From Coleofasciculus chthonoplastes F2-STO-03 (lineage in GTDB: Bacteria > Cyanobacteriota > Cyanobacteriia > Cyanobacteriales > Coleofasciculaceae), in NCBI GenBank assembly GCA_040222015.1, contig JAVJWO010000148.1, positions 1 through 14,776 on the forward strand: a stretch of 14,776 nt of DNA, in the 5' to 3' direction. The translations under genes were made by a program, and so were the position numbers. This document shows positions 2 to 9,046 of this stretch, piece after piece. The first letter of the stretch is position 1. The number at the start of each line of letters is the position of its first letter. The notes under the pieces were generated by a model. It was not told the origin of the DNA and did no database searches. It saw only the letters and a list, made by a program, of their open reading frames with translations.

Positions 2-550
<549 letters not shown>

Positions 551-727: not shown

Positions 728-780
728 CAAATGACGAATGACAAATGACGAATGACGAATGACGAATGACGAATGACGAA
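728..780 (+). repeat. STRR heptamer array (CRAATGA) x ~7.5
   Basis: caaatga cgaatga caaatga cgaatga cgaatga cgaatga cgaatga cgaa read directly. Confidence 0.95.
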
Positions 781-799: not shown

Positions 800-827
800 T
801 TGCCAAATCCAAATGGTGTGTTATCCT
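800..827 (+). promoter_or_regulatory. Putative sigma70-type promoter for the 6S-like RNA
   Basis: TTGCCA (800-805), 16-nt spacer, extended -10 TGnTATCCT (819-827); predicted start near 833. Confidence 0.5.
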
Positions 828-900
828 AATTAAAGGTGAATAAACACCAGATAACTAACGGAAATCAAAAAACCGTACAGGGATTAAGGAGGTGATGCCC

Positions 901-954
901 ATGAGCGATAGTAGTAAAAGCATGGGTCATCTGATTGGAGTTAGCCGGCTGTGA
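901..954 (+). CDS. Candidate 17-aa micropeptide MSDSSKSMGHLIGVSRL overlapping the 6S-like RNA
   Basis: TAAGGAGGTGAT (885-896) directly upstream of ATG 901; TGA at 952-954. Confidence 0.35.
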   Translation: MSDSSKSMGHLIGVSRL

Positions 955-1078
955 GCCGGGGCTGTTCTCTAACAGTTAGCTCAGTTCTCTTCGGAGAACT
1001 CATATATTGAGAAACTGGGCTGGTTAAGGAGTTCCTTCCGGCAGTCTGGTTTCAATCAGAAGACCCGCTAGACCGCTC
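903..1078 (+). ncRNA. ssrS: Probable 6S RNA (ssrS/ssaA); ends approximate
   Basis: ~176-nt rod: 924-944 pairs with 1046-1066 (20/21 positions, several G-U, which favours the + strand), GCCGG/CCGGC, a large central bubble, then apical stem 974-989 with 1009-1025. Size and rod-with-bubble fold match 6S RNA; promoter upstream and terminator downstream. Confidence 0.72.
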
Positions 1079-1136
1079 TCACTATAAGCACTGAAGATTT
1101 TATCTAAGTGCTTCCCGTGAGAGCGGATAGTTTTTT
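1068..1136 (+). terminator. Long terminator-like hairpin after the 6S-like RNA
   Basis: CCGCTCTCAC (1073-1082)/GTGAGAGCGG (1117-1126), inner AAGCACT/AGTGCTT, then T6 at 1131-1136. Confidence 0.75.
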
Positions 1137-1171: not shown

Positions 1172-1456
1172 ATGGCTGAGTTACTCAGTGGCGCAGAAAT
1201 TCAAGAAAAAGTCAAGTCACTAGATGGCTGGACGATTGAAGGCAAAGAGTTACGCAAAACTCGCCAATTTAAAGATTTTGTCGAAGCGATCGCGTTTGTC
1301 AATAAGATTGTTGAACCAGCAGAAGCGGCTGGACATCATCCTGATTTAGCGATTTCGTATAACAAGGTGACAATTAATCTTACCACCCATGAGGCTGGGG
1401 GGTTGACGGCTAAAGATTTTGAGATGGCTCAGACGTTGTCCAAGTTAAGCGTGTAG
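1172..1456 (+). CDS. Pterin-4a-carbinolamine (4a-hydroxytetrahydrobiopterin) dehydratase
   Basis: 94 aa with FKDF..AIAFVN, AEAAGHHPDL and LTTHEAGGLT..DF motifs of the PCD/PhhB family. Confidence 0.93.
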   Translation: MAELLSGAEIQEKVKSLDGWTIEGKELRKTRQFKDFVEAIAFVNKIVEPAEAAGHHPDLAISYNKVTINLTTHEAGGLTAKDFEMAQTLSKLSV

Positions 1457-1713: not shown

Positions 1714-3519
1714 ATGTCAAAATTACTGTGGAAGTCTCTACTTATTAGCCCAGCGGTATTAGGTGTAACCTTAGTTGCATCAACGATGGGAGTCCGTGCA
1801 GCCGATAGCGCCAAGTTGCCTATCGCTGACACTCAAACAGCAACACCAGAAGTTCAGTTCGATGGTGTTGCTGATATTACGGTTTCAGAGGAAATTGCGG
1901 TTAATCCGGAACAGTTAACTCCAGCTAGTCTGGAGGTGAAGCCAGAGGCACAACCGTCCTTGGCTCAAGCGGTTCCTGCGACGCCCAATGATGCTGAAAT
2001 TTTAAATCAAATCAATGACTATAGCAGCGAAGGAAACTCTAGCGGACAAGTGACCAGTGTCGGTCAGTTACGCGACGTTTCTCCGGGAGACTGGGCGTAT
2101 GAAGCGCTACGTAGCCTAGTCGAACGCTACGGCTGTATCGCTGGGTATCCAGATGGTACGTATCGTGGCAATCGGGCGCTGACTCGTTACGAATTTGCCG
2201 CTGGTTTGAATGCTTGTTTGAACCAAATTGAGCGTTTGATTGGTCCGGGTGGTTTTGACCCGACTGAGTTAGAAACCCTGCGGCGGTTAATTCAGGAATT
2301 TGAAGCAGAACTGGCGACGCTAGGGGCGCGAGTCGATAATCTAGAAGGTCGTGTGGCGTTCTTGGAAGATAATCAGTTTTCCACGACGACTAAATTACGG
2401 GGTGAAGTGATTTTTGCCCTCACCGACGAGTTTAATTCTGACTTTGACAATAACACTGTCTTCCAAGACCGGGTTCGTTTAGAACTGAATAGCAGCTTCA
2501 CCGGTCAGGATCGGTTAGTGACTCGTTTAGCTGCAGGTAATGCGGATCTACTTAATACTGGTGCAGGTTTTGAGGCGACTCAGACCTTCAACATAGGGAA
2601 CACAGGTGGCAATGATGTTATTGTAGACTGGCTAGCTTACTACTTCACCTTTGGTAGCTCGAAAGTTTACGTGGCTGGCACTGGCGGGATTCATAGTGAC
2701 TACGTTCCTACCCTCAATCCTTACTTTGAAGACTATGACGGTGGTAATGGTGCATTGTCTGCCTTTGCCTCTGAAAGCCCCATCTATCGAATCGGTGGTG
2801 GTGCAGGTGCAGCCTTTAGTCTAGGCGCGGGTCCCCTAGAAAGGGTATTGGGACCAAGTACATTGACTTTTGGTTACTTGGCAGGTCCTGGCGCAGAAAA
2901 TCCAGGTGATGACTTTGGTGTATTCAATGGTGAATATGCGGCACTAGCCCAGTTGAATTTCAACCTTGGCGATCGGATTGCCCTCGGTGCAACTTATGTC
3001 CATGGTTACCATAATTCTGGTACTAACATCTTTGATATTGGTGCAGGAAGCTCGGCGGTTGTCGGTACTGGGTTTGCCAATAACCCAGCTTCCTTCGCGG
3101 CAAATGATAATGTGCCTATGGTCACGAATACCTACGGCATAGAAGCAGCATTGCGCCTTAGCGAAACAATTTCAATTAGTGGCTATGGTGCTTACACTGA
3201 TGCAATCCTAGTTGGTCGAGGCGGTAGCGAAATCTGGACTTATGGTGCTGGCGTTGCCTTGGCTGACCTGGGTAAAGAAGGTAACGTTTTGGGAATTTTT
3301 GGCGGTGTACAACCCTACGCCGGAAATATTGATGTTCCAAGCGGAGATTTCCGACGAGATAATGACAGTTTACCCTGGCACGTTGAAGCCTTCTACAAGT
3401 ACCAACTCACGGATAATATCTCGTTTACTCCGGGTGTCATCTGGTTGATGAATCCCGACCAGGATAGTAATAATGAGGATGCGGTCATCGGTACACTCAG
3501 AACAACTTTCACGTTCTAA
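1714..3519 (+). CDS. Cyanobacterial outer-membrane porin (SLH domain + OprB-type barrel, Som / 'iron uptake porin' family)
   Basis: Signal peptide; QVTSVGQLRDVSPGDWAYEALRSLVERYGCIAGYPDGTYRGNRALTRYEFAAGLNACL SLH motif; coiled coil; QFSTTTKLRGEVIF; C-terminal GTLRTTFTF. Confidence 0.96.
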   Translation: MSKLLWKSLLISPAVLGVTLVASTMGVRAADSAKLPIADTQTATPEVQFDGVADITVSEEIAVNPEQLTPASLEVKPEAQPSLAQAVPATPNDAEILNQINDYSSEGNSSGQVTSVGQLRDVSPGDWAYEALRSLVERYGCIAGYPDGTYRGNRALTRYEFAAGLNACLNQIERLIGPGGFDPTELETLRRLIQEFEAELATLGARVDNLEGRVAFLEDNQFSTTTKLRGEVIFALTDEFNSDFDNNTVFQDRVRLELNSSFTGQDRLVTRLAAGNADLLNTGAGFEATQTFNIGNTGGNDVIVDWLAYYFTFGSSKVYVAGTGGIHSDYVPTLNPYFEDYDGGNGALSAFASESPIYRIGGGAGAAFSLGAGPLERVLGPSTLTFGYLAGPGAENPGDDFGVFNGEYAALAQLNFNLGDRIALGATYVHGYHNSGTNIFDIGAGSSAVVGTGFANNPASFAANDNVPMVTNTYGIEAALRLSETISISGYGAYTDAILVGRGGSEIWTYGAGVALADLGKEGNVLGIFGGVQPYAGNIDVPSGDFRRDNDSLPWHVEAFYKYQLTDNISFTPGVIWLMNPDQDSNNEDAVIGTLRTTFTF

Positions 3520-5271: not shown

Positions 5272-5681
5272 GAAACGGAATGGAAGCATATCTCACCGTA
5301 TCGACCAACTTTAGCGCCGCTCATCGGCTGGCTCATCCCCAACTCAGTTATGACCAAAACTGTGAAATCTACGGCAAATGCGCTCGCCCGAACGGTCACG
5401 GACATAATTATCATATAATTGCCATCTATATTCGGCAATTGCTCCAGTCACCGATCCAAAAATTAGGAGCGAAACTGCATAAAGTTAAACTCATTGAAAG
5501 TCCCAATAACTCCTGTGAAGTCTATTGTACAGGTGAAACATCATCGGTAGAACCGGACGCGATCGCATCTCCTGTTCTCACATTTGTTTAGGGAGAAGCA
5601 TCATATCTATTCTATGATGATGTTGGTCTATTAGTCAGCGAGCAAACCCCTGCTTCTGCCTTCCATAGTCGTTAAGAGTAT

Positions 5682-7798: not shown

Positions 7799-9046
7799 TC
7801 ATTGCTGATGAGATTTCCTGGCTCTACGAGCAACCTTACTTTTTGGGGTTTCCCCCTCCAAGCAGCGGGTCATCTCATCCCCAGGCGTAACTTTCCGAGT
7901 GCCCCTCGGTAGTTGAGCTAGTCCCTGTAATGCTTTCATCAAAATATTAATGGCAGCATTCACATCTCGGTCGTCCAAATAACCGCAATGCGGACATTTA
8001 TGAGTACGGGAGGACAAAGCTTTCTTAACTTCCTCTCCACAGTTGGAACAGTCCTGGGACGTGTAATGAGGTGCAACAGCAATTACTGGCACATCAAACA
8101 CCTTCCCGAAATATTCCAACCACTGCCTAAATAATGTCCAACTAGCGTCAGATATTGACTTGGCTAGATGATGGTTTTTTACCATGTTCCGCACTTTTAG
8201 GTCTAGCCTTCGGCAAGCCGCTGCCGCGTCTACAATGGCTACCAAGTCTGCCGACTGGACAAGCGCCCTTGCAGTCTTAACCACAAAGTCTTTACGCCGC
8301 CTTGACACCTTGAGATGCGTTCTGCCTAGCTGCTTGATGGCTTTGAGACGATTCTTGGAACCCTTACCTCTACGAGACACACGCTTCTGTGCGCGTTTTA
8401 ATGCCTTTTCAGACTTTCTCAAGAACCTAGGGTTCTCTACTTTATTGCCATCGGAGTCAGTGTAGAAATGGTTTAGACCAACATCTATGCCTACCATGCG
8501 GTTGGTGGGTTCATGATGTTCTCTACGTTCTTGGTTAATGGAAAACTGGACGTAGTATCCATCAGCCCGACGCACAACACGAACTCGCTTAATTTGCTCT
8601 TTTTGGTAAAAGTGCAAGTCACGAGTACCCCACATCTTAAAGGTTCCAGCCTTGAAGCCATCCCTAAACGTAATGGTTAATCGGTCATCCGATAGTACCC
8701 ATCCATCAACCTTGTACTCGACAGAGCCGTGAGTTTGATGTTTTTTAAATTTGGGAAAACCTTTCTTACCTGGAACCTTTTTCTTGCAGTTATCAAAGAA
8801 TCTAGCAATGGCGCTCCAAGCTCTCTCGGCGCTAGCCTGACAAGCTTGAGCCGATAACTTCTTGCACCATTCAAACTGTTCTCTGAGAACCTTGCAATAT
8901 TTATTGAGGTCGTATCTACCAACCCCTTTGTTATCCATCCAGTATCGGAGGCAACTATTACGCACAAAGCGAGCAGTGCGAATCATCTCATCTAGGATGG
9001 CGTACTGCTCGTCTGTTCCTCGTAATTTTGCCTCAAATACTAACAT
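7799..9046 (-). CDS. tnpB: TnpB RNA-guided endonuclease, probably nuclease-dead
   Basis: N-terminal HTH, GFPKFKK, RuvC-I VGIDVGL, zinc finger CSNC..CPHC, RuvC-III DRDVNAAINI; RuvC-II reads AI-VDAAAACRRL-DL instead of AIEDL. Confidence 0.93.
   Translation of the reverse strand: MLVFEAKLRGTDEQYAILDEMIRTARFVRNSCLRYWMDNKGVGRYDLNKYCKVLREQFEWCKKLSAQACQASAERAWSAIARFFDNCKKKVPGKKGFPKFKKHQTHGSVEYKVDGWVLSDDRLTITFRDGFKAGTFKMWGTRDLHFYQKEQIKRVRVVRRADGYYVQFSINQERREHHEPTNRMVGIDVGLNHFYTDSDGNKVENPRFLRKSEKALKRAQKRVSRRGKGSKNRLKAIKQLGRTHLKVSRRRKDFVVKTARALVQSADLVAIVDAAAACRRLDLKVRNMVKNHHLAKSISDASWTLFRQWLEYFGKVFDVPVIAVAPHYTSQDCSNCGEEVKKALSSRTHKCPHCGYLDDRDVNAAINILMKALQGLAQLPRGTRKVTPGDEMTRCLEGETPKSKVARRARKSHQQ
8201..8232 (-). 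repeat. 27-bp small dispersed repeat-like insertion in tnpB
   Basis: Minus strand TAGAC GCGGCAGCGGCTTGCCGAAGGC TAGAC; 5-bp direct repeats 27 bp apart; frame preserved. Confidence 0.8.

Follow-up and report, generated by a model that had tools for sequence, protein, structure and literature searches.

Which RNA carries the strong Shine-Dalgarno sequence and the 17-codon reading frame downstream of psbD in Coleofasciculus chthonoplastes F2-STO-03, and what is gained by its translation? The element lies on the window's forward strand, the window being the whole stretch of 14,776 nucleotides that was analysed, and the coordinates of the features are collected in Table 1. The genes present mark the window as cyanobacterial. 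A sequence-only reading had placed it in the 5' arm of a 6S-like RNA and had suggested that ribosome loading gates folding or maturation and links translation to the sequestration of RNA polymerase, or that a micropeptide is produced. The signals were found as described: the Shine-Dalgarno sequence TAAGGAGGTGAT at 885-896, an ATG at 901 and a frame running to the TGA at 952-954. Bases 886-896 form 11 contiguous pairs with the 16S rRNA 3' tail of a genome of the same genus (G002), from which the tail was taken, the own assembly (G000) being without one. A duplex energy of -18.5 kcal/mol surpassed the best start of each of the 4,227 long ORFs scored in the genome (best -18.1, median -5.9 kcal/mol); the earlier impression of a Shine-Dalgarno sequence stronger than those of the protein genes was borne out on the genome scale. 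Nine copies of the 11-mer are present on both strands of the 7.7-Mb genome, two of them ahead of an ATG. A GTG inside the Shine-Dalgarno sequence (window 892-903) shares the frame of the ATG and precedes it by three codons; for lack of a Shine-Dalgarno sequence of its own, it can probably not serve as a start. The transcript start, which had been predicted near 833, agrees with an extended -10 element and with the published transcript of Nostoc PCC 7120, which begins at the base homologous to window position 834 (Table S3, PMC4734099).

The RNA that hosts these signals is almost certainly Ncl0160 and not 6S. Published Ncl0160 sequences and the window show the same motifs in the same order from the start site to the terminator. 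The RNA, known under its Synechocystis name, was described by Brenes-Alvarez et al. 2016 (PMC4734099) with 83 homologs in 89 genomes, each with a ribosome binding site, a start codon and a frame of 23-25 amino acids; all three stop codons are used. Since this publication gives both the ribosome binding site and the frame, the core observation of the sequence-only reading was already in print as a prediction. The copy in the window has the 5' start, the Shine-Dalgarno sequence and start codon before the conserved frame, the 3' motif and the terminator in common with the published RNA, but its frame is closed at codon 18. We file it as an Ncl0160 variant, because 17-codon forms recur in families f31, f33, f34 and f64. 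Ncl0160 resembles 6S (SsrS) RNA in size and in its rod-like fold; at the window locus, folding supported a rod with internal loops. In contrast to 6S, it possesses a conserved Shine-Dalgarno sequence and ORF, and covariance models did not recognize it: Rfam at gathering scores yielded no match over the window, RF00013 none at E values up to 10 in positions 540-1200, and none at three homolog loci. The true 6S gene of this genome is located on a different contig (C168:8729-8911, 98.8 bits with RF00013).

Other identities were considered. PmgR1 (Ncr0700) is likewise an abundant, conserved cyanobacterial sRNA of comparable length, but on inspection its published sequence shows no relation to the window copy, its level is highest in darkness, and just 1.6 % of it is found in gradient fractions 14-18 (see below). 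A mobile or phage origin was rejected, as plasmids and phages gave no match and the locus is single-copy in the genome. A full-text literature search for ncl0160 returned PMC4734099 as the sole paper naming the RNA; searches by topic revealed no functional study, as judged from the listings, and searches by sequence motif no match. Ncl0160 is highly expressed in growing Synechocystis and widespread, yet no function is assigned to it in the literature searched. The consulted parts of PMC4734099 do not mention 17-codon alleles, a picocyanobacterial form, covariation over the ORF, co-sedimentation with 30S subunits or a function. As far as our searches reach, the 17-codon forms, the wider range including the picocyanobacterial form and the 30S signal are new; the 6S interpretation is removed, the short picocyanobacterial form and natural 17-codon alleles are added, and public data point to a complex with the 30S subunit.

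Table 1. Features of the Ncl0160 locus and its surroundings in the window
Feature	Position	Strand	Basis
psbD, 3' part; usual upstream neighbour with own terminator at about 578-609	2..550	+	ORF sequence; terminator scan
Predicted sigma70-type promoter (-35 TTGCCA 800-805, extended -10 819-827)	800..827	+	Promoter scan; TGTGTTA-type -10 visible in many homologs
Ncl0160-family RNA of about 300 nt; start site inferred, end at the terminator	834..1136	+	Homology to the 283-nt Nostoc PCC 7120 transcript (Table S3, PMC4734099)
Conserved CC-N5-GG motif upstream of the Shine-Dalgarno sequence	873..881	+	153 of 192 distinct homologs
Shine-Dalgarno sequence, 11 contiguous pairs to the 16S tail	885..896	+	Pairing, duplex energy; GGAGGTG in 117 of 120 loci among the matches listed (3'-only pattern)
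Predicted transient hairpin H1 (897-903 with 921-927), would hide the start codon in nascent RNA	897..927	+	Folding; no double compensatory change, weak in f33
17-codon ORF, translation MSDSSKSMGHLIGVSRL, stop TGA (codon 18, usually Cys)	901..954	+	Sequence; allele also in contigs of runs X1, X2 and X3
Usual 23-codon frame, TAA stop retained at 970-972	901..972	+	Homolog comparison
Rod: P1 924-928/1062-1066; P2 931-939/1051-1059 (covarying); P3 and B:C helices 944-961/1036-1050; apical variable domain about 973-1030	924..1066	+	Folding, covariation
Intrinsic terminator with covarying 3-bp base below the main stem	1068..1136	+	CTA/TAG 188, CGA/TCG 46, CCA/TGG 7 of 250
Pterin-4a-carbinolamine dehydratase, frequent but not fixed downstream neighbour	1172..1456	+	Domain match; 75 of 110 loci, distance varies
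SLH-OprB porin, shared neighbourhood	1714..3519	+	Domain match

Ncl0160 is present in most cyanobacterial families searched. The region 820-1100 is single-copy in the genome and was matched in 33 of 40 relatives; the miss in the same-genus genome G002 is an assembly gap rather than a true absence, for its contig begins just past the element. A pattern made from the 3' part found at least 120 loci; among the matches listed, the three loci without a plain GGAGGTG comprised two incomplete ones and one variant Shine-Dalgarno sequence, and the ORF had 23 codons in 109 loci, 24 in six and 22 in two. BLASTn detected the element in 141 of 401 genomes of the phylum, a sequence-only profile in 98 of 121 genomes of the class. 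In family f33, taken as the picocyanobacteria, 114 of 151 genomes carried it, the two weakest matches being probably chance. A profile of the f33 form had its sole match in the Coleofasciculus genome at window 884-970 (E 0.002), and the f33 element, too, had no match in Rfam. Upstream of the RNA, psbD was present in 53 of the 84 homolog loci with at least 400 nt of upstream sequence; among 29 f33 loci, psbD was upstream in 11 and a porin downstream in nine. One f33 genome contained a second, weaker copy of the element (G238:C1:2023847-2024006, E 1e-14). Many of the smallest f33 genomes (1.6-1.9 Mb) gave no match to the element, and neither did six of six genomes of genus g93 (family f35).

The 17 codons in the window are a shortened allele of the 23-codon frame. 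Codon 18 is TGC or TGT in all seven matched genomes of the same genus, here it is TGA. A954 recurs in contigs of runs X1, X2 and X3, which stem from three studies, and the X1 contig differs from the window at other sites; the TGA is therefore genuine and an assembly error was rejected. The cysteine codon, with C at position 954, was seen in run X16 and in a second contig of X3. Recoding of the UGA to selenocysteine was dismissed, as SelA is missing (no PF03841 match in the genome, which is 99.99 % complete). Stops at codon 18 were also observed in f31 (TGA; G087, G447), f34 (TAG; G411, G289, G155, G145, G500) and f64 (TAG; G508, G478, G489). Codon 18, just beyond P3, was the sole site at which early stops appeared, in this genome and in these three families, and in three of the f34 genomes (G411, G289, G155) the stop at codon 24 has decayed. 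The picocyanobacterial form is equally short: in all 50 f33 loci examined, the Shine-Dalgarno sequence is present, the start lies 23 nt before GGGTC, and the frame has 17 codons with TGA, TAA or TAG as stop. A 2-nt insertion after codon 12 shifts its frame and changes the tail residues. The form of family f59 counts 24 codons and differs at the N-terminus.

Conservation of Shine-Dalgarno sequence, start, frame and stop, a check of the kind that the sequence-only reading had asked for, holds across the phylum. For the analysis of the frame, 213 of 219 loci were anchored, representing 192 distinct homologs; six loci stayed unanchored and 13 rows were placed on the in-frame GTG inside the Shine-Dalgarno sequence. 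Among the 192 distinct homologs, the distances from the start to GGGTC differed by multiples of three only. The 5' strand of the rod had a single spacing in 189 of them; the spacing of its 3' partner was 23 nt in 128 homologs and took other values, usually differing by 1-2 nt, in 45, and the partner was unanchored in 19. At codon 11, 8.6 stops were expected from the column frequencies and none occurred in 165 sequences, the other two frames showing about the expected numbers; these column counts ignore relatedness and the figures are rough. The stop codon itself is exchanged freely (TAA 95, TAG 65, TGA 3). Judged by this conservation pattern, the frame is very probably translated. Constraint on the residues was lower: omega, a rough estimate by parsimony for 178 sequences on a tree built from the element itself, came to 0.59-0.71 over the whole frame, to 0.79-0.95 in codons 9-17 and to 0.27-0.29 in codons 18-23. 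Almost all sequences have aspartate or glutamate as residue 3, with a free third base, S4 and G9 are also well kept, and G9 and L17 are encoded by nearly a single codon. The 23-residue form had no match in Pfam or NCBIfam, a weak test for so short a peptide. With regard to dual-function sRNAs, whose peptide is made and acts, selection for translation is strong and selection for residues weak.

The ORF overlies the 5' strand of the rod, as had been noted, and this strand is under selection as RNA: in P2, above codons 11-13, two-sided changes occurred at all nine pairs among 128 sequences. P1 and P3 are uninformative for covariation because they are nearly invariant. With frame and stop retained, weak constraint on the amino acids and covariation in P2, translation is maintained while much of the peptide follows the pairing of the RNA. 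In truncated window transcripts the spacer and the AUG were predicted to pair with codons 7-9 (H1, probability about 1.0); in the full-length window RNA P1 would replace H1, and the Shine-Dalgarno sequence was predicted to be unpaired at 0.87. The same change from H1 to P1 was predicted in 141 of 163 folded homologs. For 160 folded homologs the terminator was predicted to stay formed (0.99), and the folds showed no antiterminator. The folding also predicted a partly unpaired UUCC bulge. The 3-bp stem at the base of the terminator (window 1068-1130) shows covariation throughout the phylum, is set off by a small internal loop and possibly represents a protein-binding or tertiary motif.

Public data sets on the Synechocystis homolog, which lies on the chromosome's reverse strand from 484860, provided hints on abundance and partners. 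Read counts of the transcription unit TU475 were 1,656,605 for exponential growth, 162,252 for stationary phase and 76,346 for darkness; the unit runs 434 nt past the RNA (supplement of PMC4195498). In the Grad-seq data of PMC8136920, the four ncl0160 rows had 32-54 % of their signal in fractions 14-18, with a peak in fraction 16/17; the pool in fractions 6-8 was of similar size or larger. Eight comparators picked by hand (6S, tmRNA, PmgR1, ncl1350, ncr1420, norf1, cpcB, psbD2) had 1.6-3.5 % in fractions 14-18. Over fractions 9-18 the profile correlated with the rows r03/r04 (r 0.97-0.98), hardly with the fraction-18 row r02 (0.05-0.13) and negatively with 6S (about -0.7). We infer that r03/r04 represent 16S rRNA, as the two remaining pairs are found together in fraction 18. 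As an indirect measure of association with RNA polymerase, 12 % of Ncl0160 (0.117) was present in the polymerase fractions 9-12 versus 69 % of 6S (ssaA, 0.694). The suggested link to polymerase sequestration thus falls together with its 6S premise. Co-sedimentation is no proof of binding. In E. coli, co-sedimentation with 30S subunits is common for short coding RNAs (PMC7498339); by analogy, it may be a general property of very short coding RNAs, or it could arise after lysis. Neither ribosome footprints nor a detected peptide were found for the RNA; the main text of a Ribo-seq study (bioRxiv 10.64898/2025.12.20.695498) does not name ncl0160.

Tentatively, we favour translation itself, rather than the peptide, as the main function of Ncl0160. 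According to the homolog data, the transcript is abundant, equipped with its own start site and terminator, and in Synechocystis highest in exponential growth and low in darkness. The nascent RNA would hide its start codon in H1 until the 3' GACCC is made and P1 forms, so that mainly the complete RNA would load ribosomes. The 11-bp Shine-Dalgarno duplex may hold free 30S subunits, as the co-sedimentation suggests. A ribosome reaching at least codon 17 would melt P1-P3 and thereby change the fold, the access of nucleases or the exposed 3' strand, and the state of the RNA would track ribosome availability. Such a switch would explain the retention of frame and stop, the drift of the residues and the early stops only just past P3. 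Of the earlier proposal, the gating of folding by ribosome loading may stand, given the phylum-wide conservation of Shine-Dalgarno sequence, start, frame and stop and the overlap of the ORF with a covarying rod; its 6S context does not. Several results weaken the interpretation as a switch. The low omega of codons 18-23 together with the well-kept acidic residue 3, S4 and G9 indicates that some selection on the peptide is possible. H1 lacks a double compensatory change and retains about four pairs in f33. The predicted accessibility of the ribosome binding site in full-length homologs was about 0.4 on average, and masking a ribosome in the fold caused almost no rearrangement, the mask being seemingly ineffective. 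The gradient comparators were hand-picked and the 16S label of r03/r04 was inferred. An output of the switch was not found. In its widest form the proposal is possible but doubtful: an ancient, near phylum-wide housekeeping RNA would capture free 30S subunits with its 11-bp Shine-Dalgarno duplex, a single short round of translation would open its rod, and the RNA, on its own and linked to light and growth, would sense or buffer the availability of ribosomes, the peptide being a by-product. If true, a free-standing RNA switch run by the ribosome would give photosynthetic bacteria a novel means of coupling their translation capacity with regulation.

The micropeptide of the sequence-only reading, already proposed in PMC4734099, is the alternative that survives best, possible though on the unlikely side: a peptide of 17-24 amino acids with the core M-x-D/E-S-S-K-x-M-G would be the functional product and the rod would control its synthesis or the stability of the RNA, as in the mRNA of a small protein. 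The phylum-wide conservation of start, frame and stop, the acidic residue 3 with its free third base and an omega of about 0.28 in codons 19-23 are consistent with such a product, and association with the 30S subunit revealed E. coli RyeG as the mRNA of a small protein (PMC7498339). However, omega approaches 1 between codons 9 and 17, five families have lost the tail, f33 has it in a shifted frame, f59 has a remodelled N-terminus, and protein family models did not recognize the 23-residue form, at a length where this counts little. The comparison with RyeG/YodE has its limits: both appear as sRNAs with a short ORF that co-sediment with 30S subunits, but RyeG is a prophage mRNA of low copy number that encodes a toxic protein of 48 amino acids, whereas Ncl0160 occurs across the phylum, is abundant and has a strongly constrained RNA structure. 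Dual-function sRNAs such as SgrS, SR1 and RNAIII (compare PMC6596454) and leader-peptide attenuators likewise have a short ORF in a regulatory RNA whose translation could alter the structure; in Ncl0160, by contrast, the ORF lies within the main helix, and neither a fixed downstream gene nor an antiterminator was seen.

A sponge or store for small ribosomal subunits is improbable. The extra-long Shine-Dalgarno sequence, the strongest in the genome, would trap 30S subunits in an initiation complex that proceeds slowly, and the role of the frame would be limited to letting trapped ribosomes terminate and recycle. The high abundance of the homolog and a heavy pool that parallels the presumed 16S rows (r 0.98) but not the rRNAs of fraction 18 speak for it, but the covarying rod and the restriction of early stops to codon 18 are left unexplained, and expression peaks in growth, when sequestration of 30S subunits would cost most. 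Even less probable is a leader-peptide attenuator or read-through cassette for the dehydratase and porin genes. The dehydratase starts 36 nt past the terminator in the window and follows the RNA in the majority of loci (Table 1), and the Synechocystis transcription unit extends beyond the RNA; however, the downstream gene and its distance vary widely, the predicted terminator is almost always formed and unopposed by an antiterminator, and the frame contains no run of regulatory codons.

Messenger RNAs of type I toxins have a very long Shine-Dalgarno sequence and a metastable hairpin, and Ncl0160 with its predicted H1 resembles them in both; a toxin-like mRNA silenced by folding is nevertheless highly unlikely, as the peptide is polar and charged by inspection, without a hydrophobic transmembrane stretch, and the locus, single-copy and syntenic, shows high expression during growth. 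A second 6S-like RNA, binding RNA polymerase under ribosome control, for which the long rod with internal loops speaks, is hardly credible given the absence of an RF00013 match, the 6S gene elsewhere in the genome and the anticorrelation of the gradient profiles.

Three further observations concern the surroundings of the RNA. Between psbD and the promoter, window 730-780 contains a tandem 7-base repeat; the stretch varies among genomes of the same genus and is replaced in run X1. An ORF of 103 amino acids at window 5280-5591 resembles, by eye, a short or truncated 6-pyruvoyl-tetrahydropterin synthase. On the reverse strand, an ORF of 415 amino acids at window 7799-9046 resembles, also by eye, an IS200/IS605 TnpB.
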